A program made the translations under genes and the position numbers. This document shows, piece after piece, positions 1,833 to 38,230 of a DNA stretch of 38,230 nt. Each line of letters begins with the position of its first letter. The stretch's first letter is position 1. This stretch comes from a virus (taxonomy: Duplodnaviria; Caudoviricetes), in the IMG/VR virus record IMGVR_UViG_3300016667_000212, positions 1-38,230 of that record; one strand, given 5' to 3'. The notes under the pieces were generated by a model, which worked only from the letters and a program-made list of their open reading frames with translations, had not been told where the DNA came from and searched no databases.

Positions 1833-2012
1833 ATGGCAACCAAGAACTGGATCGCTGGCGCGATCAAAAAGCCCGGCGCGCTGCGCAAGGAGTTGGGCGT
1901 CAAGAAGGGCGAGAAGATCCCCGCTGCCAAGCTCGCCAAGGCCGCTGAGAAGGGCGGCAAGCTGGGCCAGCGCGCTCGTCTGGCCGAGACGCTCAAGAAG
2001 ATGAAGAAGTGA
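1833..2012 (+). CDS. 59-aa highly basic protein (MATKNWIAGAIKKPGALRKELG...), not in the ORF track
   Basis: RBS TAAGGAG before ATG 1833; stop overlaps the endolysin GTG (GTGA); 15 Lys + 3 Arg versus 4 Glu. Confidence 0.8.
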   Translation: MATKNWIAGAIKKPGALRKELGVKKGEKIPAAKLAKAAEKGGKLGQRARLAETLKKMKK

Positions 2013-2389
2013 CCTTCAAGCTCGGCCCCCGTTCTGTCGCCCGGCTCAAGGGTGTGCACCCTGACCTAGTCAAGGTCGTGGAGCGCGCCATTCAGCTGTC
2101 GACGGTGGACTTCACGGTGCTGGAGGGCCTGCGCACGATCGAGCGTCAGAAGGCGCTCGTCGACGCCGGTTCCAGCCAGACCATGAACAGCCGGCATCTG
2201 GACGGCCACGCCGTCGATCTGGGTGCATGGGTGGACGGGCAGGTCGATTGGTCTTGGCCGCTGTACAGCCGGATCGCTGACGCCATGAAACGCGCAGCTG
2301 ACGAACTTGAAATCCCTATTGAGTGGGGCGGGGACTGGAAAATGAAGGATGGCCCCCACTGGCAACTCCCTTGGAAAGAATACCCATGA
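2009..2389 (+). CDS. Endolysin, M15-family (L-Ala-D-Glu) peptidase
   Basis: LxGVHPDL, EGLRT.ERQ, SRHLxGHAVD, WGGDW and DGPHWQ zinc-peptidase motifs. Confidence 0.9.
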   Translation: MTFKLGPRSVARLKGVHPDLVKVVERAIQLSTVDFTVLEGLRTIERQKALVDAGSSQTMNSRHLDGHAVDLGAWVDGQVDWSWPLYSRIADAMKRAADELEIPIEWGGDWKMKDGPHWQLPWKEYP

Positions 2390-2559
2390 TCAACGCAACC
2401 ATCATTCAAGCTATCGTGCGCCACCTGCTGACCGGCGTCGCCGGCGGTTTCGCTGTCAAGTACGGCATCGACGGCGGCGTCATGGACGCCATCATTGGCG
2501 GCCTGTCGGCGCTGGCTGGCGTGGGCTGGTCGATCTACGACAAGCGCAAGGCAGCCTGA
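2386..2559 (+). CDS. Putative holin (57 aa, two hydrophobic helices, basic C-terminus)
   Basis: ATGA overlap with the endolysin stop; IVRHLLTGVAGG ... AIIGGLSALAGVGWSIYDKRK. Confidence 0.65.
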   Translation: MINATIIQAIVRHLLTGVAGGFAVKYGIDGGVMDAIIGGLSALAGVGWSIYDKRKAA

Positions 2560-16898: not shown

Positions 16899-18424
16899 TG
16901 CAAAAACCCATCTACGCCCCGGAAGACGAACAGCTGCTGATGACCCGACTGTGGTCGCCACAGATCAAGGACGACCCCGAGGCGTTTGTGTTGTTTGCCT
17001 TCCCGTGGGGCCAAGAGAACACGCCGTTGGCGAAGTACAAGGGCCCGCGCATGTGGCAGCGCCAAGTACTTCGCGACATCAAGGCGCACATCGACAAGAA
17101 TCGAGGCCAGATCAACATGGACACGCTGCGCGAGGCAGTGGCGTCCGGGCGCGGTATCGGCAAGTCGGCCTTAGTCTCATGGCTCATCCTGTGGATGCTT
17201 TCCACGCGCATCGGCTCCAGCGCCATCATCTCGGCCAACTCGGAAGCGCAGCTCAGATCTGTGACGTGGGGTGAGCTGACCAAGTGGTCGACCATGGTCA
17301 TCAACGCCCACTGGTGGGAGATCAGCGCGACCAAGCTGACGCCGGCCAAGTGGCTGTGCGACTTGGTCGAACGCGACCTCAAGAAGGGCACGCGCTACTG
17401 GTCGGCCGAGGGCAAGCTGTGGTCGGAAGAGAACCCCGACAGCTACGCCGGTGTGCACAACCACGACGGCATGATGCTGATCTTCGATGAGGCGAGCGGT
17501 ATCCCCGATGGCATCTGGTCGGTGGGCGCGGGCTTCTTCACGGAAAACATCCTTGACCGCTACTGGTTCGCGTTCAGCAACCCCCGACGCAACACGGGCT
17601 ACTTTTTTGAGTGCTTCAACGCCAAGCGCGACTTCTGGCACACGCGCCAAGTCGACGCGCGCACGGTGGAGGACACCGACAAGCAGGTCTACGAGCAGAT
17701 CATCGCCGAGTACGGCGAGGATTCGTCACAGGCCAGAGTTGAGGTGTACGGCGAGTTCCCATCCGCTGGCGACGACCAGTTCATCGCGCCCAACATGGTG
17801 GCCGACGCCGCCCAGCGCCCGCGCTACAAGGACGAGACAGCCCCGATCGTGATCGGCGTCGACCCGGCCCGAGGCGGGGCCGACTCCACGGTGATCGCCG
17901 TGCGGCAAGGCCGCGATCTGGTGGCGATCCACCGCTACCACGGCGAGGACACCATGACGATCGTCGGTCGGGTGATCGACGCCATCGAGGAGTACAAGCC
18001 CACGCTGGTGGTGCTGGACGAGGGCGGTCTGGGCTACGGTATTCTTGACCGGCTGCATGAGCAGCGCTACAAGGTGGTCAGGGGTGTGAACTTCGGCTGG
18101 AAGGCCAAAAACCCCATCATGTACGGCAACAAACGGGCCGAGCTGTGGGGCACGATGAAGGAGTGGCTGCGCACCGCTTCCATTCCGAACGATCGTGGGT
18201 TAAAGTCCGATCTGACCGGGCCTACCATAAAACCGAACTCGTCGGGTACAATTTTCCTAGAAGGCAAGAAGGAAATGAAAGCCAGAGGGCTGGCATCACC
18301 CGACGCCGCCGACGCACTGGCTGTGACGTTCGCGTTCCCTGTGGCGCACCGGCAGTATGTTGAAAAACCGACCACACGCGGGTACGCAGCCAACGGCGTG
18401 GTCACATCTTGGATGGGGGCGTGA
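16898..18424 (+). CDS. terL: Terminase large subunit
   Basis: Walker A ASGRGIGKS; Walker B LIFDEASG; FSNP; nuclease IGVDPARGGAD; SPDAADAL. Confidence 0.95.
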   Translation: MQKPIYAPEDEQLLMTRLWSPQIKDDPEAFVLFAFPWGQENTPLAKYKGPRMWQRQVLRDIKAHIDKNRGQINMDTLREAVASGRGIGKSALVSWLILWMLSTRIGSSAIISANSEAQLRSVTWGELTKWSTMVINAHWWEISATKLTPAKWLCDLVERDLKKGTRYWSAEGKLWSEENPDSYAGVHNHDGMMLIFDEASGIPDGIWSVGAGFFTENILDRYWFAFSNPRRNTGYFFECFNAKRDFWHTRQVDARTVEDTDKQVYEQIIAEYGEDSSQARVEVYGEFPSAGDDQFIAPNMVADAAQRPRYKDETAPIVIGVDPARGGADSTVIAVRQGRDLVAIHRYHGEDTMTIVGRVIDAIEEYKPTLVVLDEGGLGYGILDRLHEQRYKVVRGVNFGWKAKNPIMYGNKRAELWGTMKEWLRTASIPNDRGLKSDLTGPTIKPNSSGTIFLEGKKEMKARGLASPDAADALAVTFAFPVAHRQYVEKPTTRGYAANGVVTSWMGA

Positions 18425-18684
18425 TGGCAAAAAAGAGCGTTTCGCTGTCTGTTGGACGGGGGGAAAAACTGCCCGTGTCCAAGGGCGCCGGCCTCACCGC
18501 CAAAGGTCGGGCCAAGTACAACGCTGCCACCGGCTCCAAACTCAAAGCTCCTGCACCCAGCCCCAAGACCGAAGCCGACAAGGGCCGCAAGGCCAGCTTC
18601 TGTGCGCGCATGGAAGGGGTCGTCAAAAACGCCAAGGGGCCGGCCGAGCGCGCCAAAGCCTCACTCAAACGCTGGAAGTGCTGA
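18424..18684 (+). CDS. Small basic protein (86 aa, DUF6321-like)
   Basis: TGATG coupling; GLTAKGRAKYN...LKAP...RKASFCARM...SLKRWKC; 16 Lys. Confidence 0.8.
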   Translation: MAKKSVSLSVGRGEKLPVSKGAGLTAKGRAKYNAATGSKLKAPAPSPKTEADKGRKASFCARMEGVVKNAKGPAERAKASLKRWKC

Positions 18685-18686
18685 TC

Positions 18687-18866
18687 ATGGCAACCAAACC
18701 CGGGCTCTACGCCAACATCCACGCGAAGCAAGAGCGCATCAAGGCCGGCAGCGGCGAGAAGATGCGCAAGCCCGGCAGCAAAGGAGCGCCCACCGACAAG
18801 GCGTTCCGTGAGTCGGCCAAGACGGCCAAGAAGCCGGCGAGCAAGCCGATGAAGGGGAAGTGCTGA
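18687..18866 (+). CDS. Small basic protein (59 aa, [14 protein letters not shown]...)
   Basis: Starts 2 bp after the previous stop; 13 Lys; [11 protein letters not shown]. Confidence 0.75.
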
Positions 18867-19027
18867 TGCCACTCGTCAAATCCACATCCAAGCAGGCGTT
18901 CCGCAAGAACGTGGCCGCTGAAGTGAACGCCGGCAAGCCGGTCAAGCAGGCCGTCGCGATTGCCTACGACGTCAAGCGCCGCGCAGCTGCGCCAGCCAAA
19001 AAAGCACCCACGTCGAAGAAAAAATAA
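18866..19027 (+). CDS. Small basic protein (53 aa, [15 protein letters not shown]...KQAVAIAY...[11 protein letters not shown]), not in the ORF track
   Basis: TGATG coupling upstream and TAATG coupling to the portal; 11 Lys. Confidence 0.8.
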
Positions 19028-21279
19028 TGGCAACGATCAACCAAGACCCCACAGGCATCGACGGCGCAGGCAAAGTGTCTGCGCGCGGCGGCCCAGACCA
19101 AAAAGACCACCGCGACACGCTCCAGCTCATGCGCGACCGCATGCGCCAAGCGGTCGGTGCGTACTCTGAGAGCCGTGAAGACGAGCTCGACGACCTGCGC
19201 TTCATGGCGGGCTCCCCAGACAACCAGTGGCAGTGGCCGCAGGACGTGTTGGCGACCCGTGGCTCTGTGCAGGGTCAGACCGTCAACGCCCGTCCGTGCC
19301 TGACCATCAACAAACTGCCGCAGCACGTCCGTCAGGTGACGAACGAGCAGCGTCAGAACCGTCCCAGCGGCAAGGTGATACCGGTCAACGATCAGGCTGA
19401 CGTGGAAGTGGCCGAGGTGCTCGATGGCATCGTGCGCCACATCGAGTACATGTCAGACGCTGACGTGGCCTACGACACCGCCTGCGAGAACCAAGTCACC
19501 TACGGCGAAGGTTACATCCGCATCCTGACTGAGTATTGCTACGAGGACAGCTTCGATCAGGACATCAAGATCGCCCGCGTTCGCAACAGCTTCTCGGTCT
19601 ACATGGATCCGCTGATCCAAGACCCCTGCGGCTCGGATGCCGAGTGGTGCTTCATCACCGAAGACCTGATGAAAGAAGACTACCAGCGCATGTACCCCAA
19701 CGCTGCGCCGCTGTCGTCCATCATGGTTCAGGGCATCGGCGACCAAGACATCAGCCAGTGGATCACCGAAGACACGATCCGCATCGCCGAATACTTCTAC
19801 ACCGACCACAAGACCGAGACGCTGTACCTGTTCCCGGGCAATCAGTCCGTGTTCAAAGGCTCCCGCGAGGAGAGAAACCTACGCGCTGCCGGGCTGAACC
19901 ACATCCGCGAGCGTCAAGTCGACCGCAAGCGCATCATGTGGATGAAGACCAACGGCTTTGAGGTGCTGGAAGAGCGCGAATGGGCCGGCAAGTGGATCCC
20001 CGTGATCCGCGTGGTGGGCAACGAGTTCCAAGTGGACGGCCGGATCTTCATCTCCGGCATCGTGCGCAACGCCAAAGACGCCCAGCGCATGTACAACTAC
20101 TGGACTTCGCAGGAAGCCGAGATGCTGGCGCTGGCCCCCAAGGCCCCCTTCATCGGCTACGGCGGCCAGTTTGAAGGCTACGAGTTCCAGTGGAAGACCG
20201 CCAACACCCAGAACTGGCCGTATTTGGAGGTCAACCCGGACGTCACAGACGGCTCAGGCGCCGTTTTGCCGCTTCCGCAGCGTGCCGCCCCGCCCCTGCC
20301 CCAAACCGGCCTCATTCAGGCCAAAATGGGCGCTTCTGAGGACATCAAGACCACCACCGGCCAGTACGATGCGGCCCTCGGTCAGGTGTCCAACGAGCGT
20401 TCTGGCAAGGCCATTCTGGCCCGCGAAAAGCAAGCTGACGTCGGCACCTACCATTACGTCGACAATCTGGCCCGCGCGGTGCGTTACGTCACGCGCCAGC
20501 TGGTCGATCTGATTCCCAAGATCTACGACACCCAGCGCATCGCCCGAATCATCGGCATTGACGGCGAAACCAACATGGTCAAAATCGATCCGACGCAGGC
20601 CGAGCCGGTCAAGAAGATCGTCGACCAAGCTGGTGTGGTGATCGAAAAGATCTACAACCCGTCCGTGGGTCGCTACGACGTGGCTGTGACCACCGGCCCG
20701 AGCTATCTGACCAAGCGTCAGGAAGCCATGGACGCGATGGCCCAGATTCTGCAAGGCAACCCCCAGCTGTGGGCCGTGGCCGGCGATCTGTTCGTCAAAA
20801 ACATGGATTGGCCGGGCGCGCAAGAGATGGCCGCCCGCATCCGCAAGACCATCGACCCCAAACTGCTGGCCGATCAAGACAACGACCCCGCCTTGCAGGC
20901 CGCTCAGAAGCAAATTGAGAGCCTCATGGGTGAGATGCAGGCCATGCACCAGATGCTGATGAACGTCAACAGCTCGTTTGAGGCCAAAGACGTCCAGATC
21001 CGCGAGTTTGAGTCGAAGATCAAGGCATTCGATGCGGAAACCAAGCGCATTTCGGCCACAATGGCCGGTATGACACCCGAGCAGATCCAAGACATCGTGA
21101 TGGGCACGCTGGCAGCGGCCCAAGATGTCGGCGATCTGATCCCGCCGCAGGGCATGATGGGCCCGATCGAGGAAGGCCCGCAGCACGAAGGCATGGAATC
21201 CCCCCAAATCGAGCGTCAGGAGGAGGCCCAGCAGGCCACGCCGATGCCAAATATCGCGCCTGAGGAGGGCCAAGCATGA
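19027..21279 (+). CDS. Portal protein (P22-like)
   Basis: 750 aa; RPCLTINKL, G.VRNAKDAQRMYNY, SGKAILAR, GRYDVAVTTGPSY.TKRQEA; C-terminal coiled coil. Confidence 0.92.
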   Translation: MATINQDPTGIDGAGKVSARGGPDQKDHRDTLQLMRDRMRQAVGAYSESREDELDDLRFMAGSPDNQWQWPQDVLATRGSVQGQTVNARPCLTINKLPQHVRQVTNEQRQNRPSGKVIPVNDQADVEVAEVLDGIVRHIEYMSDADVAYDTACENQVTYGEGYIRILTEYCYEDSFDQDIKIARVRNSFSVYMDPLIQDPCGSDAEWCFITEDLMKEDYQRMYPNAAPLSSIMVQGIGDQDISQWITEDTIRIAEYFYTDHKTETLYLFPGNQSVFKGSREERNLRAAGLNHIRERQVDRKRIMWMKTNGFEVLEEREWAGKWIPVIRVVGNEFQVDGRIFISGIVRNAKDAQRMYNYWTSQEAEMLALAPKAPFIGYGGQFEGYEFQWKTANTQNWPYLEVNPDVTDGSGAVLPLPQRAAPPLPQTGLIQAKMGASEDIKTTTGQYDAALGQVSNERSGKAILAREKQADVGTYHYVDNLARAVRYVTRQLVDLIPKIYDTQRIARIIGIDGETNMVKIDPTQAEPVKKIVDQAGVVIEKIYNPSVGRYDVAVTTGPSYLTKRQEAMDAMAQILQGNPQLWAVAGDLFVKNMDWPGAQEMAARIRKTIDPKLLADQDNDPALQAAQKQIESLMGEMQAMHQMLMNVNSSFEAKDVQIREFESKIKAFDAETKRISATMAGMTPEQIQDIVMGTLAAAQDVGDLIPPQGMMGPIEEGPQHEGMESPQIERQEEAQQATPMPNIAPEEGQA

Positions 21280-21638
21280 AACCCGCAGAGTTTGTCGGCA
21301 TGATGTTTCTGGCCCGTGATGTGGCGCACTCTGTGCACCTCAACACGCGCAGTTTTTCCAAGCACATGGCCCTGAACACGTTCTACGAAGAGATCATCGA
21401 GCTCGCTGACAAGTTTGCCGAGGCGTACCAAGGAAAACACGGTCTGGTGGGCCCGATTTCGCTGATGAACGCCAACAAGACATCCAACATCGTCGAATTT
21501 TTGCAAGATCAGGTCGACGGTATTGAAAAGGCCCGGTACGAGGTTTGTGACAAAACCGAAACGGCGTTGCAAAATATCATTGATGAGATTGTCGGGCTGT
21601 ACCTGAGCACGCTCTACAAACTTCGTTTCTTGGCATAA
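21276..21638 (+). CDS. Ferritin/Dps-like four-helix protein (DUF5856-like)
   Basis: AHSVHL...HMALNTFYE....LADKFAEAYQG; LQNIIDEI....STLYKL. Confidence 0.7.
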   Translation: MKPAEFVGMMFLARDVAHSVHLNTRSFSKHMALNTFYEEIIELADKFAEAYQGKHGLVGPISLMNANKTSNIVEFLQDQVDGIEKARYEVCDKTETALQNIIDEIVGLYLSTLYKLRFLA

Positions 21639-21923: not shown

Positions 21924-23990
21924 ATGGCTGTCAACCTTTCCCCCGTGGGCGGCGTTGCGGCCCAATTCTTCGACAACAGCGGCTACCCTTTGACGGGTGG
22001 CAAGCTGTACAGTTATGCTGCCGGCACCACTACGCCTGCAACGACATACACCAGCTCCAACGGCTCCACAGCGCACAGCAACCCTATTGTGCTGGACGCA
22101 GCCGGCCGCGTGCCTGCTGGCGGTGAGATTTGGCTCACGGATGGCATCACCTACAAGTTCGTGCTGAAGACCAGCACCGACACGCTGATCGCAACCTACG
22201 ACAACATCACCGGCATCAACAGCAACGCGATTGCTTTTACCAACACTCAAGAAATTCAAACGGCCACCGCAGGCCAAACGGTCTTCACGCTAACCAACTC
22301 ATATCAACCCGGCGCCAACAGTCTGTCAGTGTTTGTGGACGGCGTGAATCAGTACGGCCCCGGCGCCCAGTACTCTTACGTTGAGACGGACGCCAACACG
22401 GTGACGTTTAACAGCGGACTGCACGTTGGCGCGTCGGTCAAGTTCACCACCACGCAGCAGCAAGGCGCTGGCGCTGTGGATGCACAACAAGTGTCGTATG
22501 TGCCGCCGTTCACAGGGTCTGTCGCAACCAACGTCGAAGTCAAACTGGCGCAGTACATCAGTGTGCAAGATTTTGGCGCTGTGGGCGACGGCAGTACCGA
22601 CGATCAACCGGCCATTCAAGCTGCGCTTGATTATGCGGCGTCTCTGTCAAATCAAAGCCCCACTTTTGTCTTGTTTCCGGGGCAAAACAATGAAGTGTAC
22701 GCAATCGAAAGCCAGATCGTTGTAGACAGTGACTACAACGTCGGAATAAGTGGGTTTGGCGGCACACCAACGATCAAGTACACCGGCCCAGTTATGAATA
22801 CGTCCACTCAAAACGATTCAACTGGTGCGATGATCTATTTCAGCGGCACGGATCACGCTTTTGGCGGCATCAAAGACCTGTTTGTGGACGCAAGCAGCGC
22901 GGCAAATTTCTGTGTCTATCTGGAGGGCATTTGCCAGCCCCAATTCAATATCAAGAACCTGCACATGAAGCACGCGCAGCTTGATATTTTGTACGCCAAC
23001 AACAACGCTGGACTCGGACAGACGCAACTGTTCATTGACGAATGCACGTTTTTTCCGGCTACAGGCGCTACGTTCTCGGGGCAGACGGCAGTGTGTGGCC
23101 GGTATCCGATTCACATTGCAGTAGGCTCCAACACCGGGATGATCCGTATCAGCAACACTGGGATCGATAGCGGTGTTGCAGGATGTGTCGGCATCACCGC
23201 AGGCGCTGGAGCGTCGTACATCAATGAGCAAATCTTGATGGATAACGTGCGGTTTGAGACGTATGGTTCCAACAAAGACGTAATCGTTTTGGATTATGGT
23301 GCGCTTACAAATCCCGGCGAAATTACGCTACTTAATTGCAAACCATCAATTGGCGATGCAGGCAGCATTACAGCCTACGTCGCAAATGCAACATCCCCCG
23401 CAGGCGCTCGCCCCGTCATCAATTTTGTACCCTACATGGAACAAAACACGATGACGTACATCTACAACGATATAGATACGGCGTATCGGGTGACGGATGA
23501 CACAAAACGACAAAGCGTAATTTTTGCAATCAACCAAACCAGTTCTGTTGGCCGTCTTCAAATGGGCACCGCGATGCCCAGCACTCCCGTGGACGGAGAC
23601 TACTATCTCAACAACTCGACGCGACAGTTGGTTGGCCGCATCAACGGAAAAACATTTGTTCAGCCGTTTGGCAACCCAACTATCTTGGGGCCAAGCACAA
23701 CGTACAGCATCGCATACACCGATTTTGACAAACTGATCCACAACAACAACGCTGGCGCGTTGACGTTGAATCTGCCATCGATTGCGACTGTGTCTACCGG
23801 GTTTAAGCTCAACATTGCCGCCACCACATCGGGGGCTATTACGCTCACGCCAGACGGCACTGATTCGATTGGCCCAAAAACTGCCGGGCAGACTTACGTT
23901 AGCAGCGGAAGTGCAGGCGACGCATTGATTCTGATGGCTGGCCCCGGCAGCAAATGGGTGGTGCTGTCCAAAGTGGGGACTTGGTCGTAA
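21924..23990 (+). CDS. Tailspike / receptor-binding protein 1 (particle-binding N-domain plus beta-helix)
   Basis: QFFDNSG.PL.GGKLY.Y.AGTTTP...NPIVLD..GR N-domain; SVQDFGAVGDG.TDD..AIQAALD beta-helix cap. Confidence 0.85.
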   Translation: MAVNLSPVGGVAAQFFDNSGYPLTGGKLYSYAAGTTTPATTYTSSNGSTAHSNPIVLDAAGRVPAGGEIWLTDGITYKFVLKTSTDTLIATYDNITGINSNAIAFTNTQEIQTATAGQTVFTLTNSYQPGANSLSVFVDGVNQYGPGAQYSYVETDANTVTFNSGLHVGASVKFTTTQQQGAGAVDAQQVSYVPPFTGSVATNVEVKLAQYISVQDFGAVGDGSTDDQPAIQAALDYAASLSNQSPTFVLFPGQNNEVYAIESQIVVDSDYNVGISGFGGTPTIKYTGPVMNTSTQNDSTGAMIYFSGTDHAFGGIKDLFVDASSAANFCVYLEGICQPQFNIKNLHMKHAQLDILYANNNAGLGQTQLFIDECTFFPATGATFSGQTAVCGRYPIHIAVGSNTGMIRISNTGIDSGVAGCVGITAGAGASYINEQILMDNVRFETYGSNKDVIVLDYGALTNPGEITLLNCKPSIGDAGSITAYVANATSPAGARPVINFVPYMEQNTMTYIYNDIDTAYRVTDDTKRQSVIFAINQTSSVGRLQMGTAMPSTPVDGDYYLNNSTRQLVGRINGKTFVQPFGNPTILGPSTTYSIAYTDFDKLIHNNNAGALTLNLPSIATVSTGFKLNIAATTSGAITLTPDGTDSIGPKTAGQTYVSSGSAGDALILMAGPGSKWVVLSKVGTWS

Positions 23991-24808
23991 TGGCAAACAG
24001 CAAAATCTCCGCGCTCACGTCAGCGACTACACCGCTGGCGGGTACGGAGACTTTGCCTGTTGTTCAGAGTGGCGTCACCAAACAAGTCAGCGTCGCCAAC
24101 TTGACCGCTGGCCGGGTGGTTGACACCGCTGGCCTCACAATTACCGACTATGCGGGTGCAACCGCTGCAATAAACATCTCGGGCGCGGGCACAATTCCCG
24201 CCCGAATTCGTGTTGTCAGCACCACCAGTGCAGGTGCCAACATTGTTTTGCGCGATAGTGGCACGACCAACAACGTCACGCTTCTTTCGTCTGGGCAAGA
24301 CCTTGTAATCCAAACTGGCGGCGTTCAGCGTGTCAACGTCAGCGGCGGCGGCGACTTAACAATGCTGACGGGCAACGTCATCCAAGGCACCGCAGCCAAA
24401 GGTATCAACTTCACCGCCAACACCGCTACAGCGGGTTCTACAAGCAGGTTGCTGAACTGGTACGAGGAAGGGACTTGGACGCCGAACGCCGTGGCTACTA
24501 CTGGCACCATTACCACATACACGTCGTCTGGTCGTTACACACGAGTTGGCAGGTTAGTTACGCTGCAAATTGAAATCAACATAACCACTAACGGAACTGG
24601 CGCAGGAACTATCAAAGTGGACAACTTGCCGTTTACGGTAGGTTCCGTTAATGCCGCAGGTGTGGGTAAAGAAGTTGCCAACACTGGCAAAGCAATCTCA
24701 GGAAGTTTTAATGCGTCAAGCACCAACTCGTATTGGAATTACTATGATGGAACGTATCCTGGTGCGAGTGGAAACGTCATCTGGATCACCGGGTCGTATT
24801 CTGTTTAA
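23990..24808 (+). CDS. Tail fibre / receptor-binding protein 2
   Basis: TAATG coupling; MANSKISAL...GTETLPVVQSG anchor; YEEGTWTP...GRYTRVGRLVT...NLPF tip domain. Confidence 0.8.
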   Translation: MANSKISALTSATTPLAGTETLPVVQSGVTKQVSVANLTAGRVVDTAGLTITDYAGATAAINISGAGTIPARIRVVSTTSAGANIVLRDSGTTNNVTLLSSGQDLVIQTGGVQRVNVSGGGDLTMLTGNVIQGTAAKGINFTANTATAGSTSRLLNWYEEGTWTPNAVATTGTITTYTSSGRYTRVGRLVTLQIEINITTNGTGAGTIKVDNLPFTVGSVNAAGVGKEVANTGKAISGSFNASSTNSYWNYYDGTYPGASGNVIWITGSYSV

Positions 24809-24817
24809 GGATTTATC

Positions 24818-26098
24818 ATGTCTCTGACCAAAGCCTCTTATGCAATGACCACTGGCGCTGCCGTCAACGCGCTTGATTATGGTTGCGTTGCCGACGGCAC
24901 CACTGACGATACCGCCGCCCTTCAAGCTGCAATCGACGCGGCCGCTGGTAAGCAGCTATGGATGCCCAAAGGTAACTACAAAATCACTGGAACATTGACG
25001 CTTCCTCAACAAATTCGCATAACGGGCGAAGTGTTAAGGGGCGGGAATGGCACGACGATCACCGCTGCCTTTGCGGGGCCAGCAATCAGCCGCGCGCCTG
25101 CATCTTTGACGCCTTGCGAGATTTTGCTTGAACACTTGTTTGTGTTTGGAAAATACACTCAGTATGGCGCTGGCGATGGCATTTACATCAAAAACAGCCC
25201 TTCATTTAGCATTCAGTTTTGCGTGGTGGCTGGATTCAACAGACAGATTTATATTGACACTGGCTCGTATGGGTGTTTGGTGCGTGACACTTATGTTGCT
25301 GAAACATGGGGAACTGGCGGCAGCAACGCCAACATCTATTGCTCGTCTGAATTTTGCACGTTTGACCGTGTTGAGTCAGATGATGCTACCTTCAGTATTT
25401 TCTTGGCAACAGGCGCATACGGCTGCCAGATCATGCACTGCACCCTTGAAGGTTGGTCTAACTCTTGTATTCTTGTGCAAAGCAGCCTAACGACGGATCG
25501 AACCATCATTCAAGGAAATAAAATAAACGGTTCGCGTGGTGGGACGGGTATTTCCACAGACGCCAACCGAACCAACATCATCAACAACCAGATTTCTTTG
25601 ACCGCCGGTAGTGTCGGGGTTAACTTGACCGAAAACTCATACGCAAGCGTGGTTGTTGGAAACGTGGTGCAAGGTGGTAGCACTGGCGTCTACGTCAAAA
25701 ATTCTGGCGCAAACGTCATCAATGACAACTTTATCTCTGGTGATATTGCTCTTGATGTTCAAGGTGGATCGGGCTATGTGACCTATCCCCAGACGATCTC
25801 TAACAACATTGTTTCTGGTGTGACTCAAAGTTTGCGGCACAACCAAAACAACAAAACGTCGTACATCGGCAATATGTTTCAAGACGCTGCCACCGGCGCG
25901 TACAAAGCGCCTTATTTGCAGTCCGGCGCACCTTGGATCATGTCGCCTGACGGCACCAATATGACGATGTTTTCTGGTGCTATGAGTTTCCCGGCCAACA
26001 GCCTGATTGTTGCTGGCGGCGCAGGCACCAATATCGTGTCTGTCGGTGCTGCCGATTCTGGCGGTACTGGCTATCGGTTGCTTCGCATTCCAAACTGA
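24818..26098 (+). CDS. Tailspike / receptor-binding protein 3 (pectate-lyase-like beta-helix, probable depolymerase)
   Basis: NALDYGCVADGTTDDTAALQAAID, PKGNYKIT, repeated I.GN/I.NN ladders. Confidence 0.85.
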   Translation: MSLTKASYAMTTGAAVNALDYGCVADGTTDDTAALQAAIDAAAGKQLWMPKGNYKITGTLTLPQQIRITGEVLRGGNGTTITAAFAGPAISRAPASLTPCEILLEHLFVFGKYTQYGAGDGIYIKNSPSFSIQFCVVAGFNRQIYIDTGSYGCLVRDTYVAETWGTGGSNANIYCSSEFCTFDRVESDDATFSIFLATGAYGCQIMHCTLEGWSNSCILVQSSLTTDRTIIQGNKINGSRGGTGISTDANRTNIINNQISLTAGSVGVNLTENSYASVVVGNVVQGGSTGVYVKNSGANVINDNFISGDIALDVQGGSGYVTYPQTISNNIVSGVTQSLRHNQNNKTSYIGNMFQDAATGAYKAPYLQSGAPWIMSPDGTNMTMFSGAMSFPANSLIVAGGAGTNIVSVGAADSGGTGYRLLRIPN

Positions 26099-33850: not shown

Positions 33851-34189
33851 ATGGCAGTCTATGTAAAAGTTCTCATCCCTGCGAAGATCGCCGAGGCGTC
33901 TCAGACCACGCAATACACCGCGTCGGGTGTCACCACGATCGTCGACAAGTTCACCGCGACGAATTACGGCGCCGCCGCCGCGTCGATCAGCGTCAACGTC
34001 GTCACCACGACCGACACCGCTGGCAACCAGAACTTGATCGTCAAACAGAAGACGCTCCAGCCTTCCGAGACGTACACGTTCCCCGAAATCGTCGGCGTCG
34101 CTCTGGAGCCGGGCGGCTTCATCTCGACCTTGGCCGGCACGGCCAGCTCGATCAACATTCGTTCCAACGGGCGCGAGATCACATCGTGA
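33851..34189 (+). CDS. Small beta-sandwich virion protein
   Basis: RBS AAGGAG; TIVDKFTATN, ETYTFPE..G..LEPG. Confidence 0.7.
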   Translation: MAVYVKVLIPAKIAEASQTTQYTASGVTTIVDKFTATNYGAAAASISVNVVTTTDTAGNQNLIVKQKTLQPSETYTFPEIVGVALEPGGFISTLAGTASSINIRSNGREITS

Positions 34190-35058
34190 GCGACTTGATG
34201 ACCACAGGCCAACAGGCGCTCGCTCTGGTCGCTCAGATGGAGAACGCCGAGAAGGAGCTGCTGCAACATCCGCAGGCAGACTGCCCTGTGGTTCATCACT
34301 TTGGCCCCGGCGTCTGCATCCGCGAGGTCTTCATGCCGGCCGGCACGCTGGCGATCGGGCACAAGCAGAAGTACGAGCACCTGAACCTGATGCTGCGCGG
34401 CAAGGTCATGGTCATCAACGACGACGGCACCGCGCACGTCCTGAGCGCGCCCATGATCTTCGTCGGCAAGCCCGGGCGCAAGATTGGCTACGTCCTTGAG
34501 GACATGGTCTGGCAGAACATCTACGCCACCGACCTGAAGAACCCCGACGACGTCGAGGCGTACTTCATCGAGAAGAGCGAAGATTGGCGTCTCGACCATG
34601 AGGCAAAATTTGCCGCCGAACAGACTGCCCGCGCCGCCGACCGTGTCGATTATCTGACGCTGATCGAGCAGGGCGGCTTTGACCCAGAGGTCGTGCGCCA
34701 GCAGGTCGAAAACCCCGACGATCAGATCTGGATCGACAACGCCATCACTCGGGTGTCCGAGTCGCCCATTCAGGGCAAGGGCCTGTTTGTCACCCACCCC
34801 GTCAAGGCCGGCGACGTCATCTGCCCGGCCCGCATCGACGGCATGCGCACGCAGGCCGGCCGATTCACCAACCATTCTTTGTTCCCCAACGCTAAAATGG
34901 TCGCCAAACCAAACGGGGACGTTGACCTAGTTGCTCTTGTCGATTTTGAGGGCTGCAAAGGCGGGAGTATTGGAATCGAGGCAACCATCGATTACCGTCA
35001 GGCGCTGGCGCTTTCGGGCATCGAACTGAACAAACAGGAGTCACTATGTCTGGAATAG
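34186..35058 (+). CDS. Cupin-like plus SET-domain fusion protein (putative protein-lysine methyltransferase)
   Basis: N-terminal HHFGPGVCIREVFMPAGTLAIGHKQKYEHLN cupin-like motif; C-terminal SPIQGKGLF (34774-88), GRFTNHSLFPN (about 34858-34890) and GIEATIDY (to 34995) match SET motifs GxGxF, RFxNHSxxPN and GEELTxDY. Confidence 0.8.
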   Translation: MSDLMTTGQQALALVAQMENAEKELLQHPQADCPVVHHFGPGVCIREVFMPAGTLAIGHKQKYEHLNLMLRGKVMVINDDGTAHVLSAPMIFVGKPGRKIGYVLEDMVWQNIYATDLKNPDDVEAYFIEKSEDWRLDHEAKFAAEQTARAADRVDYLTLIEQGGFDPEVVRQQVENPDDQIWIDNAITRVSESPIQGKGLFVTHPVKAGDVICPARIDGMRTQAGRFTNHSLFPNAKMVAKPNGDVDLVALVDFEGCKGGSIGIEATIDYRQALALSGIELNKQESLCLE

Positions 35059-35747
35059 CAACCGCAATCGTAGGCGGCGCCGTCATCGGCGGCATCGCAT
35101 CGAACAAGGCGGCCAGCACGGCCGCCAGCGCCACTGAAAACGCGGCCAACACGGCTGCGGCGTCTCAGGAACGCATGTTCAACAAGCAGGTTGAACTGCA
35201 AGAACCATGGCGCCAAGCCGGCGTTAATGCGCTGGCGCAGTTGGGCACTGGCTTCAGCGGGCAAGTGGATCTGACTCAAGACCCCGGCTACGCCTTCCGC
35301 ATGTCCGAGGGTCTTAAAGCGCTCGACCGCAGTGCAGCTGCACGCGGCGGTCTGATGTCCGGCTCGGCCCTGAAGGCCGCTGAACGCTTCGGCCAAGACT
35401 ACGCCTCGCAGGAATACCAGAACGCCTACAACCGCGCGCTGACCAAGTACAACACCACGGCCGCGCTGGCTGGCGTCGGCCAGACCGCCACGAACGCGCT
35501 CACCGGCGCCGCTGGCAACCTTGGCAGCAACTTGGCGCAGCTGCAATACGGCGCAGGTCAGTCGGCTGGCGCTGCCCGCGCTTCCGGCTACATGGGCATG
35601 TCGAACGCGCTGACCGGCGCCATCGGCAGCGGCCTGAACTACTACCAGAACCAGAACTTGTTGAACCGGCTGCTGCCACAGCAGACAGGTGGCGGCGGCG
35701 CAACGTACCCGTCGATGGCTGTCGACCCCTACGCCAACATCGGTTAA
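35046..35747 (+). CDS. DNA-ejection protein (P22 gp7-like)
   Basis: Gly/Ala N-terminus, PWRQAG..AL, DPGYAFR..EG, AAARGGL.SG..LKA. Confidence 0.75.
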   Translation: MSGIATAIVGGAVIGGIASNKAASTAASATENAANTAAASQERMFNKQVELQEPWRQAGVNALAQLGTGFSGQVDLTQDPGYAFRMSEGLKALDRSAAARGGLMSGSALKAAERFGQDYASQEYQNAYNRALTKYNTTAALAGVGQTATNALTGAAGNLGSNLAQLQYGAGQSAGAARASGYMGMSNALTGAIGSGLNYYQNQNLLNRLLPQQTGGGGATYPSMAVDPYANIG

Positions 35748-35756
35748 GGAGCAGAC

Positions 35757-37271
35757 ATGGCAGACATCAACGCACTCATCGCTCAGGGCGTCACGCCCAT
35801 CCAGATCGAAAGCCCCATCAACCAAATGGGCAAGATCATGTCGATCCGCAACGCGCAGCAGGAATACTCGATGAACGAGCAAAAGCTCGCCGAGCAGAAC
35901 GCGCTGCGCGACTTCTTGAAAAGCAACCCCAACCTGTCGGACGCCGACACGCTGAACCGTCTGACGACGGGCTTTGGCCCGAGCGGCCTCGCCTATGGCA
36001 CCAAGCTGCTGGAGATTGACAAGGCCCGCCGCGCTGAAAAGGCTGCCGAGTGGAAGCTGGTCGAAGACAAGACCAAGTATTTCCGCGACGCGCTCTCCAA
36101 CGTCAACACACCCGACGACGCCCGGGTATGGACGGCCGCTGTGTACAGCGACCCCAACCTTGGCCCTGTGTTCCGTGGCATGGGCACTTCAGTCGAGCAA
36201 GCCATCGCAAAGATTCCGACCGACCCCAACGGGTTTACGAGCTGGAAACAACAAGCCGCCATTGGCGCCACAAGATTTGCCGAGTTGAACAAACCGCACT
36301 TTGTGACACAAAACACTGGCGGCACTGAACAAGTGTTGACGATGCCCGGTATGGGCGGCGCAGCCACTGTGGTGCCGGGCTCGGTTACCAAGAAAACAGC
36401 CACGCCCGGCGAACTGCTGGTCGACGCCCGCGCTCGCGAGCGCCTTGCCGCCGAGATGGAACAGGGAAATTACTCGCCCGAAACGGTGTCCTACCTTGCG
36501 ACCATTTACAACCAGACCGGCCAGCTGCCGGCGCTGGGCATCGGCAAGAAGGCCGGTGACGTCAAGATGCGCATCTTGGAAGAGGCGCGGCGTCTGGGCA
36601 CGCAAGCGCCTACCGACGGCGGCGCGGCGCCCACCACGCAAGAAGCCGCCGAAAGGGTCGTGCAGAACAAACAGTCGCGCGCAGCCGAGCAATCGACGCT
36701 GCGCTCGTTTGGTGCTGGTGTCGAGGGTCGCAGCGTGCGGTCGTTCAACACCGCCATCGACCACCTCGACACCATGTCCAAGCTGGCGACGGCGTTGGAA
36801 AACGGCGACGTGCGGGCATTCAACACGGTTGCCAACGCTTTTGCCAAGGGCGTCGGTACGGCTGCCCCGACCAACTTCGATACCGCCAAGAGCATTGTGG
36901 GTGGCGAAGTCGCCAAGGCTCTGGCCGGCTCCAGCATGGCTTTGAAAGACCGGGAAGAGATTCGCGACGCCATTTCCCGCGCCAACAGCCCCGAGCAGTT
37001 GGCCGGTTCCGTGCGCACGTTGCAAGAGCTCATGGGCGGTCAGCTCAAGAGCCTCAAGCTGCAATACGAGTCGGGCACCAACCGCAAAGACTTCGACAGT
37101 CGCCTGTCGAGCCGCGCCAAAGAGGTTGTCAAGTCGCTGGAAGGTGGCGAGCCCGCAGCGACCGCACCGGCAGCCGCCGGGGCCGCGTCGGTCGTGTTGC
37201 CTGACGGCCGCACGATGAATTTCCCCAATGCCGCAGCAGCAGCGGCCTTCAAGAAAGCGGCAGGACTGTAA
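35757..37271 (+). CDS. DNA-ejection/internal virion protein (gp20 position)
   Basis: RBS AAGGAG; helical Ala/Gln-rich; lies between the gp7-like and the large ejection protein. Confidence 0.65.
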   Translation: MADINALIAQGVTPIQIESPINQMGKIMSIRNAQQEYSMNEQKLAEQNALRDFLKSNPNLSDADTLNRLTTGFGPSGLAYGTKLLEIDKARRAEKAAEWKLVEDKTKYFRDALSNVNTPDDARVWTAAVYSDPNLGPVFRGMGTSVEQAIAKIPTDPNGFTSWKQQAAIGATRFAELNKPHFVTQNTGGTEQVLTMPGMGGAATVVPGSVTKKTATPGELLVDARARERLAAEMEQGNYSPETVSYLATIYNQTGQLPALGIGKKAGDVKMRILEEARRLGTQAPTDGGAAPTTQEAAERVVQNKQSRAAEQSTLRSFGAGVEGRSVRSFNTAIDHLDTMSKLATALENGDVRAFNTVANAFAKGVGTAAPTNFDTAKSIVGGEVAKALAGSSMALKDREEIRDAISRANSPEQLAGSVRTLQELMGGQLKSLKLQYESGTNRKDFDSRLSSRAKEVVKSLEGGEPAATAPAAAGAASVVLPDGRTMNFPNAAAAAAFKKAAGL

Positions 37272-38230
37272 TGGACTACGACGCTCTCGCCAAACAATTT
37301 GGGGGTTCGGCTACGCCGGCGCCGGTGGACTATGATGCCCTTGCCAAACAGTTTGGTGGGCAGACCAGCGGCATTCCGGGCAAACGCGCCGACTTTATGA
37401 CCCGGCTTGGCCGAGGCGCCGCGTCGCTGGCCGACGTGGTGGTGGGCGACATTCCCGCCATGGTCGTGCAGCAGGCGGGCTACCCCGTCATCCGGGCGTT
37501 CACGTCGCCTGAGCGCGCAACTGAGTTGACTCAGCCGGTCACCGCCGCGCTGACCAGCCCGGTGGGCAAGCTGTTTGGCGTCGAGCAGACGCCCGAGTAC
37601 AAGCAGGAAGCCTCGCGCAAGCTGATGGACTTCATCGGCCAGAACATCAACAAGGGCTCTAAGTGGATCTCAGCTCAGACCGGCTTGCCTGAGTCTGACG
37701 TCAGCAACATGATCGGCAGCCTGACGCTGGCCGCCCCTGCGGCCATCAAGCCGGTTAAGCAAGGTGTCACGCAAGCCACCAAGGCCGTCGTCGAGTCTCA
37801 GCCTGTACAAACCGCCATCGCGCCCGTCAAACAAGCCCTGCAAGAGCGCCAGACCCGCATCGCGGGCGAACGCAGCGCCAAGAGCTGGGAACGCGCGCCG
37901 CAGATCGAAGCCGCCCAGCTGGCGCCCAAGTACGACATTGCGCTCGATCCCGCACAGTCCAACCCGACTGTGAGCAACCGCATCAAGGCCACGCTGTCAG
38001 GCGCCGGCGATCTGGACGTCAAACTGTCGGCGCGCAACGAAGCCAAATGGGTGAGCGCGGCCAAGGACGCCATGGGTTTGCCGGCCGAGAGCGTGCTCGA
38101 CAAAGCCGCCTTCGACAAGGCCCGCAGCCGCCCCGAGATTTCGCGGCCCTACGAAGCCGTGCGCAACATCCAGACCGTGGTTGTCCCCGACGCGACATAC
38201 GAGGCGCTCGATCGTTTGCGCGTGCAGCCG
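37271..38230 (+). CDS. N-terminal 320 aa of the large DNA-ejection protein (continues at position 1); not in the ORF track
   Basis: TAATG coupling; open frame to the window end; starts MDYDALAKQFGG...DYDALAKQFGG. Confidence 0.8.
   Translation, partial: MDYDALAKQFGGSATPAPVDYDALAKQFGGQTSGIPGKRADFMTRLGRGAASLADVVVGDIPAMVVQQAGYPVIRAFTSPERATELTQPVTAALTSPVGKLFGVEQTPEYKQEASRKLMDFIGQNINKGSKWISAQTGLPESDVSNMIGSLTLAAPAAIKPVKQGVTQATKAVVESQPVQTAIAPVKQALQERQTRIAGERSAKSWERAPQIEAAQLAPKYDIALDPAQSNPTVSNRIKATLSGAGDLDVKLSARNEAKWVSAAKDAMGLPAESVLDKAAFDKARSRPEISRPYEAVRNIQTVVVPDATYEALDRLRVQP

Follow-up and report, generated by a model that had tools for sequence, protein, structure and literature searches.

What might a SET domain be doing in a bacteriophage, whose bacterial host offers none of the histone substrate on which histone methyltransferases act? 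The question is raised by a gene at positions 34186-35058 (plus strand) of the virus record IMGVR_UViG_3300016667_000212, the whole of which, 38,230 bases, is the window analyzed here. This gene encodes a fusion of a cupin domain to a minimal SET domain and stands directly before the gene of a gp7-like ejection protein. An initial annotation of this DNA had proposed that its product is a lysine methyltransferase with the ejection proteins or four small lysine-rich proteins as candidate substrates. Our preferred reading, to which we assign a probability of roughly 0.42, is instead that the cupin domain binds the N-terminal leader of the adjacent ejection protein and that the SET domain methylates the alpha-amine of this leader once the initiator methionine has been removed.

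Domains and family of the cupin-SET protein

The fusion gene is composed of the following parts.

34186-35058, plus strand: cupin-linker-minimal SET fusion gene of 290 residues, in the IVP-A (T7 gp13 / P22 gp14) slot; matches PHROG 34170 at E 1.7e-85
34267-34578, plus strand: cupin domain, about residues 28-131, assigned by PHROG 12032/24280 (database label 'short tail fiber') and fold matches
34267-34578, plus strand, within the cupin domain: predicted leader-binding pocket (Q30, H37, R46, G58, K99, W109, N111, E124), from the complex model and alignment
34579-34740, plus strand: helical linker, residues 132-185, from the AlphaFold2 model and alignment
34741-35001, plus strand: minimal SET domain, residues 186-272, with S193-x-I-x-G197-x-G199, N229-H230 and E265-x-T-x-x-Y270; SET-I almost absent
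34951-34974, plus strand: family-specific G-C-x-G-G-x-x-G insertion within SET, from the alignment and complex model

The open reading frame (ORF) begins with GTG, has no internal stops, and holds the SET motifs in order, namely GKGLF (residues 197-201), RFTNHSLFPN (226-235) and EATIDY (265-270). As a single sequence the protein gave no significant match in Pfam, NCBIfam or PDB searches. A family alignment was assembled from the query and 149 relatives. Of the latter, 135 come from 150 representatives listed after clustering at 50%, once 15 partial or extended sequences had been set aside, and 14 come from a second list of 120 sequences. Pfam SET (PF00856) is matched by 131 of 150 aligned relatives, and the family profile matches the SET domain of MLL1 at E 4.2e-10 and that of vSET at E 1.6e-6. 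An AlphaFold2 model of the fusion has a predicted local distance difference test score (pLDDT) of 96 and a predicted template modelling score of 0.91. The SET part of this model (about residues 183-286) matches MLL1 with Z 10.2 and root-mean-square deviation (rmsd) 3.2 over 90 aligned residues, and the top 12 rows of structure matches are all SET structures (Z 8.4-10.2). The cupin part (about residues 30-133) is matched at a Z of about 8 and, with Foldseek, at E 1e-5 to TM1459 variants; it has the double-stranded beta-helix fold. Profile and model thus bear out the initial report of SET hallmarks in order behind a cupin-like domain.

Of the 150 rows of the alignment, 141 retain every one of the residues G197, G199, N229, H230 and Y270, and Y270 itself is 97% conserved. 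The SET domain and the cupin are conserved to about the same degree: relative to the query, identity averages 51% in the cupin and 47% in SET, against 22% in the linker, which is the least conserved part. In SET enzymes the tyrosine equivalent to Y270 lines the site of methyl transfer. The SET fold and intact motifs of the S-adenosylmethionine (SAM) site are present in the fusion, and the sequence suggests that the SET domain is probably an active methyltransferase.

MLL1 (KMT2A) and the chlorovirus vSET protein A612L share with the fusion the SET fold, profile homology and the order of the GxG, NH and terminal Tyr motifs. The fusion differs from both in having nearly no SET-I and no cysteine-rich post-SET region, and in its GCxGG insertion and attached cupin. 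Among the 145 rows in which both anchors are present, 134 have a spacing of 30 residues from G199 to N229 (GxG to NH), compared with 65 in MLL1; SET-I is therefore nearly gone in the fusion family. The GCxGG insertion is not present in a subfamily with a PPWT-type cupin. Y270 is followed by a short helix (residues 270-276) and by an unconserved C-terminal tail of 2-27 residues.

At the metal-site positions of the cupin the query has H59, Q61, H65, K99 and Y113. This is short of the full histidine set of cupin motifs 1 and 2, and an altered metal site is possible. Stand-alone cupins usually keep His61, His65 and His113 (48, 36 and 36 of 50 cupin-only loci), whereas fusions mostly have Gln61 and Tyr113, with histidine at these two positions in 7 and 2 of 24 loci, respectively. 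One way to read this erosion is that a cupin that may have depended on metal would have become a binding module, the SET domain having taken over catalysis. The stand-alone phage cupin of PHROG 12032/24280 (PHA00672) is homologous to the N-terminal domain of the fusion (E 1e-31) and shares both its gene slot and its type of leader on the neighboring protein, but it has no SET and its histidine set is usually kept. Neither the fold nor the literature examined gives any support to the labels 'short tail fiber' and 'adhesin' attached to this cupin, and the present assignment would correct the 'short tail fiber' label that has spread through a large family of phage cupins.

The family is large, with 1029 proteins of similar length matching among 2751 candidates, and the corresponding atlas clusters are 93-97% viral. 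An annotated phage collection contains 66 matching records, 8 of which cover at least 80% of the query. These include the cultured phages P26218, which grows on a Rhodoferax host (50% identity), and PH1 (31%). Because of the 1029 matches of similar length and the presence of the gene in these two cultured phages, the fusion is real and not an artefact of assembly. In the cultured collection, the SET part is matched by 8 records, and every one of them matches the full fusion too. A search for a stand-alone mini-SET gave only 11 short matches, on contigs of 0.7-3.2 kb, which are probably fragments. One GenBank record already labels its own cupin-SET copy by likeness to vSET. A search of the literature, largely open-access and of main texts, found no paper on a phage cupin-SET protein or on a leader-modifying role for its slot; cupin-SET is apparently a widespread, unstudied variant of the SET fold.

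The leader of the ejection protein and its predicted cupin partner

The neighbor immediately downstream, and the portion of it that matters here, are as follows.

35046-35747, plus strand: gp7 / IVP-B-like ejection protein, 233 residues; matches PHROG 598 'DNA ejection' at E 4.5e-36
35046-35087, plus strand: N-terminal leader of this protein, residues 1-14, Met-Ser followed by a small/hydrophobic run; predicted cupin ligand and likely methylation target

The fusion gene does overlap both of its neighbors, as first described, by 4 nucleotides with an upstream 112-residue gene and by 13 nucleotides with the gp7-like gene. Of the three ejection genes said to follow it, the first is upheld by its PHROG 598 match, and the other two are so assigned by position and size only.

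The start of the downstream protein varies with the type of cupin. The cupin type of the window goes with a leader of the form MS[AG][VIL]A, a 113-residue type with MPW, and two other types with MTFW and MTWV. Cupins of the PPWT type are followed by the leader M[SA]GW whether or not a SET domain is attached. This co-variation was assessed over 66 loci, after dereplication and the removal of 8 whose partners are more distant or not homologous. Leader residues 2-5 are more alike where the cupins are more alike (Spearman 0.43; partial 0.43), whereas similarity of the gp7 body has no such relation (-0.03). The nearest neighbors by cupin and by body differ in 54 of 66 rows; the leader is better matched by the cupin neighbor in 33 of these and by the body neighbor in 8, and the remaining 13 are ties. 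A start of Met-Ser or Met-Thr and a small/hydrophobic run is found on the gene that follows the cupin in each of the 12 cultured-phage records examined. In phages R8W and BPP-1 the cupin precedes a small pre-portal gene instead, and the same Met-Ser/Met-Thr start is found there. The IVP-B-like genes of these two phages have starts of this type as well, which fits either action in trans or merely a common start. In the Dickeya phage Amaethon (L153:5222-7001, plus strand) two gp7-like paralogues flank the cupin, and the Met-Ser hydrophobic leader occurs only on the downstream one.

All 58 SET loci have serine at position 2 of the gp7-like protein, compared with 32 of 101 cupin-only loci; once dereplicated, the counts become 24 of 24 and 19 of 50, respectively. 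Within the PPWT cupin clade, Ser2 is found in each of the 5 members with SET, and Ala2 in 4 of the 5 without it. Gene overlap as the sole cause of Ser2 can be rejected, as all 18 SET loci with an overlap of at most 4 nucleotides keep the residue.

The input to a model of the two proteins in complex was the family alignment of the fusion, one for gp7 residues 2-50, and SAM as ligand. The complex scored 0.80, and the best of three controls scored 0.00. The mark used is reached by 116 of 157 solved complexes and by 2 of 215 mismatched pairs, counts that are only rough here given our own alignments and the ligand. Agreement between runs is 65% of contacts or better, and the pLDDT of the partner is 51 or more. 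Leader residues 2-14 make confident contacts with the cupin at 25-35, 46-61, 98-111 and 124-134, with a few N-terminal residues and with the SET insertion at 257-260; the near-invariant family positions Q30, R46, G58, W109, N111 and E124 are among the residues contacted. On this model, it is probable that the cupin binds the leader of the gp7-like protein.

Candidate targets of the SET domain

The proposal is that the cupin would bind the N-terminal leader of the adjacent gp7-like protein and that the SET domain would use SAM to methylate this leader, most likely on the alpha-amine of the Ser exposed by removal of Met1, at a stage before the gp7-like protein enters the head. If T7 gp13 is a guide, this action would take place during assembly rather than in the virion. 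Methionine preceding serine is normally removed. That the SET target is the leader N-terminus we consider possible at slightly under even odds. The reaction would be that of NTMT1/2, METTL13 and PrmA, which methylate an alpha-amine after Met removal but have a seven-beta-strand fold and other recognition motifs (PMC10293735). The chemistry of SET domains is not restricted to lysine, since BurB S-methylates free methionine (PMC12542666). BurB resembles the fusion in its compact SET and in having a non-lysine acceptor like the one proposed here (structural match at Z 7.1), but it is a stand-alone metabolic enzyme acting on free Met, with no cupin and a longer insert of about 48 residues, as inferred from the numbering used in that paper (PMC12542666). 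The gp14/gp7 class has been described as an ejection protein that penetrates the outer membrane (PMC8954989), and gp7 of P22 is N-terminally processed by host cleavage to an end of Lys-Gly-Gly-Lys-Gly (PMC8402733). N-terminal tailoring is therefore plausible biology for this class. Should SET act on the leader tip, its chemistry would be widened beyond lysine in a very small scaffold, and a chemical maturation step would be added to assembly of the ejectosome.

Lysine, the acceptor originally proposed, is doubtful. The gp7-like partner has no conserved Lys, 4 of 24 SET-linked gp7s have none in their first 40 residues, and one (locus L028) has none at all; gp7 lysine is therefore no universal target. 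In canonical SET domains, SET-I pairs with the lysine-bearing peptide, and in the fusion SET-I is missing. There is still a version of lysine methylation that must be weighed, in which the cupin binds and escorts the leader and the lysine (or His or Met) methylated by SET belongs to another part of gp7, to a different ejection or tail protein, or to a host protein kept close by. This arrangement would account for the retention of the classical catalytic Tyr and NH motif and for the fact that the closest structures are lysine methyltransferases. It would also accommodate the first Lys at positions 17-33 in 19 of 24 SET-linked gp7s and the leader tip that stays in the cupin in the complex model. 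However, besides the missing SET-I and the lysine-free gp7 of L028, it leaves the invariance of Ser2 unexplained, and we regard it as unlikely.

The complex model also bears on the catalytic role itself. The sole confident contact of SET with the leader is the 257-260 loop, and this, together with the absent SET-I, would suit a non-catalytic chaperone that binds the leader, with SET as a SAM- or S-adenosylhomocysteine-binding or purely structural extension of the leader groove. Most relatives manage with the cupin by itself, a deletion has removed SET but neither of its flanks (L139 compared with L158), and the cupin histidine set is eroded in the fusions too (H61, H113), all of which would fit such a chaperone. 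The 97% conservation of Y270 and the enzyme-like appearance of other occupants of the slot argue against it, however, and we consider a purely binding role quite unlikely.

The precedent of BurB raises the further alternative of a small-molecule or Met S-methyltransferase, which would act on free Met or on the unprocessed leader Met1 and might be coupled to the cupin. BurB, a compact SET that S-methylates Met (PMC12542666), does match the model over 104 aligned residues, and the fold matches include cupins that handle sulfonium compounds, DddK for example (Z 7.7). But at Z 7.1 and rmsd 5.1 BurB ranks only 47th, below lysine methyltransferases, and it is not among the best 60 of 135 profile matches. 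Additionally, the gene is fixed in the ejection (virion) operon and not with metabolic genes, and Met before Ser would normally be gone. We therefore judge this alternative improbable.

The initial annotation had further suggested that SET is the lysine 'writer' for lysine-rich, histone-like mini-proteins. The four mini-proteins of the window do contain 19-25% Lys. Their distribution was followed in 41 records, in which the SET query matched exactly the 17 that had been picked as fusion carriers. At least one of the three pre-portal mini-genes occurs in 7 of the 17 SET-bearing and in 8 of the 24 SET-less records, so the two do not track each other, and 10 of the 17 SET-bearing records carry none. 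Among those without any of the three are P26218, PH1 and two genomes judged 100% complete with fusions 68-69% identical to the query (G001, G002). The 8 SET-less carriers all fall among the 9 records found by way of the window's own gp7 (8 of 9). The fourth mini-gene (1833-2012) was matched in 0 of 41 records, a result that is uninformative since it had no positive control. On co-occurrence the mini-proteins are rejected as SET substrates, and a role of this sort is very improbable. Of the two kinds of substrate originally put forward, it is thus the ejection protein that emerges as the likely partner, through co-variation and the complex model. The three pre-portal mini-genes (window 18424-19027, plus strand) lie between the terminase and portal genes and match the ends of longer PHROGs of no assigned function; all three are strongly conserved among close relatives, the first at up to 97% identity.

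Several considerations weigh against a methylated leader tip. In the complex model, no SET active-site residue (G197/G199, N229/H230, Y270) is among the confident leader contacts; the leader is docked in the cupin and not at the SET active site, and methylation would therefore need a hand-off or a second subunit. The controls for this model included no other hydrophobic leader, and according to the description of the complex tool 7 of 44 blind neighbor pairs passed. Without SET-I, an acceptor channel may fail to form. The N-alpha methyltransferases described in the excerpted portion of PMC10293735 are seven-beta-strand enzymes, none of them SET. As for the genetic evidence, in 40 of 58 SET loci Ser2 shares bases with an overlapped C-terminal codon (Cys in the 15 dereplicated rows listed), and this shared Cys codon is an alternative reason for the change from Ser to Ala after SET loss. 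Adjacent and often overlapping genes, combined with general selection on leaders, can yield co-variation, such that linkage remains a confounder. The co-variation rows are phylogenetically non-independent, the SET loci fall in just three cupin groups, and start codons were chosen by script. The cupin tree was built by a quick method and leaves many forks open, and no root or order of gains was drawn from it. VvAW1 and L101 are without SET yet keep Ser2. Finally, the interval from the hub gene to the gp7 gene contains no cupin in 11 of 75 close loci, which makes the leader-binding step dispensable.

The slot before the ejection genes and its other occupants

In T7, IVP-A matches acetyltransferases and is required for morphogenesis but does not stay in the virion; it has a syntenic homologue in P22 and is replaceable by an unrelated gene (Hardies et al., PMC4819975). 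The gp39 protein of phiRIO-1 has been published as an 'alternative to IVP-A'. The records of T7 and P22 have gp13 and gp14 directly before the gp14/gp7-type ejection protein, and the same position directly 5' of the IVP-B/gp7 gene is found for the fusion in the window, in P26218, in PH1 and in all paired SET loci. Its placement in the P22 gp14 / T7 gp13 slot, one reported as acetyltransferase-like (PMC4819975), accordingly stands. T7 gp13 (IVP-A, PF11090) and P22 gp14 (PF11039) have the slot in common with the fusion, but their folds are unrelated (GNAT versus cupin plus SET) and the group donated would be acyl rather than methyl. The start of the partner also differs, being Met-Ser for the fusion, Met-Cys for T7 gp14 and the host-cleaved Lys-Gly-Gly-Lys-Gly end for P22 gp7 (PMC8402733). 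No match of the fusion to PF11090, PF11039 or GNAT was found, both of its domains being assigned to other folds; from sequence, the fusion appears to be a replacement in the slot and not a member of the IVP-A family.

The slot was sampled by anchoring on the downstream ejection gene, using the window's gp7 (best 80 of 586 matches) and its VvAW1 homologue. The first anchor gave 77 new loci, of which 75 were scored, while 3 further loci were fusions already known. Cupin alone is present in 62 of the 75, no cupin in 11 and cupin-SET in 2. The VvAW1 anchor gave 57 loci, and the 56 that were scored comprise 28 with cupin, 3 with cupin-SET and 25 with neither. Library scans of these 25 found GNAT or P22-gp14-family matches in L179, L181, L213 and L218-L221. 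The slot holds GNAT plus DUF6445 in L194, a radical SAM protein in L193 and an Asp/Asn-hydroxylase-like protein directly before the gp7-like gene in L217 (1447-2025). The library scans gave no match for the slot ORFs of L186, L188 and L204 and only an unnamed PHROG for that of L178. In L199 (1453-1992) and L215 (1661-2194) an Asp/Asn beta-hydroxylase-like gene follows the cupin and directly precedes the gp7-like gene. The cupin sits between tail tube B and IVP-B, the gp13 position, in the T7-like phages phiAp1 and VAC_51, and it precedes a gp7 homologue in RSK1, VvAW1 and P26218. Locus L139 keeps both of the flanks that surround SET in L158 but its SET core is gone, and SET was therefore lost there by deletion.

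The slot therefore accepts several kinds of predicted modifying proteins, with cupin the commonest occupant in the window's lineage and SET an add-on. The earlier proposal of a slot for a modifying enzyme agrees with this variety of predicted occupants; SET is not the core of the slot, given that cupin alone is usual and relatives have deleted SET. Since most close relatives have in the slot either the cupin by itself or nothing, SET is rejected as its essential function. Mutual exclusion with GNAT genes, offered in the initial annotation as a check on the SET fusions, fails in strict form for the cupin family, as BPP-1 has a GNAT gene directly beside its SET-less cupin. For the SET fusions themselves, no GNAT-like ORF was seen between the hub and gp7 genes in tilings of the loci, where only three of the ORFs in this interval were scanned against libraries.

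We tentatively put forward, as a possibility well short of even odds, that the slot before podophage ejection proteins is an interchangeable leader-tailoring cassette, resembling within virion assembly a pathway for peptides that are made by the ribosome and then modified (RiPPs). GNAT, 2-oxoglutarate-oxygenase-like, radical-SAM and cupin proteins would each recognize and modify a matched N-terminal leader on the ejection protein that penetrates the outer membrane, and cupin-SET would be a reader-plus-writer version, a SET-fold enzyme that N-alpha-methylates. T7 gp13 is needed to build infectious particles and is not found in them. For T7 gp13 and P22 gp14 too, co-variation and the complex model give the concrete, testable idea that the neighboring ejection protein is worked on by the slot protein in roughly its first 14 residues.

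Several observations were made on other slots. The GNAT-preceded ejection proteins of L219 and L221 start with MGGKG or MGKG, like the mature Lys-Gly-Gly-Lys-Gly end of P22 gp7, which suggests a GNAT-specific class of leader. In phiAp1, where the cupin precedes IVP-B, a gene that is GNAT-like by eye and unsupported by Pfam (L146:1629-2006, plus strand) lies before a small pre-portal gene with a Met-Gly start. The L178 occupant (1999-2439, plus strand; PHROG 21390) has a DDxxD-like motif, weak atlas leads (0.75-0.76) to clusters of isoprenoid-synthase type, and a structural match (template modelling score 0.70) to a domain in viral sulfotransferase-family proteins; a leader-lipidating enzyme is possible, as a lead only.

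The window carries a P22-like structural module, with terminase, portal, coat, adaptor and head-closure genes recognized by family-library matches. Its gene order at the locus is a long tail protein, the 112-residue gene, the cupin-SET gene and then the ejection genes. The remaining neighbors are listed below.

33851-34189, plus strand: tail-module gene, 112 residues; in a cluster of 78 homologous ORFs, with no Pfam/PHROG-type match
35757-37271, plus strand: second ejection protein, gp20-like by position, 504 residues; assigned by position and size only, no family match
37271-38230, plus strand: 5' part of the third ejection protein, gp16-like by position; assigned by position and size only, this part having no family match

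The third ejection gene spans the ends of the window, as 37271-38230 plus 1-1608 is open and in frame. In related loci, other genes adjoin the fusion on its 5' side. In L005 (9132-10004, plus strand) and six related loci, the gene directly 5' of cupin-SET encodes 290 residues and is glycosyltransferase-like by eye, with no Pfam match, and in P0122 a gene that is likewise glycosyltransferase-like by eye shares one frame with the cupin-SET gene. The 148-residue ORF in this position in L049 (5519-5965, plus strand) is P-loop/sulfotransferase-like by eye and matches PHROG 10855 'hydrolase' at E 1e-12. Elsewhere in the window, a DUF5856 / PHROG 858 gene ('starvation-inducible transcriptional regulator'; 21276-21638, plus strand) overlaps the portal stop, and three pectate-lyase/tailspike-like genes (21924-26098, plus strand) lie between the portal and scaffold genes, 5' of the tail module.

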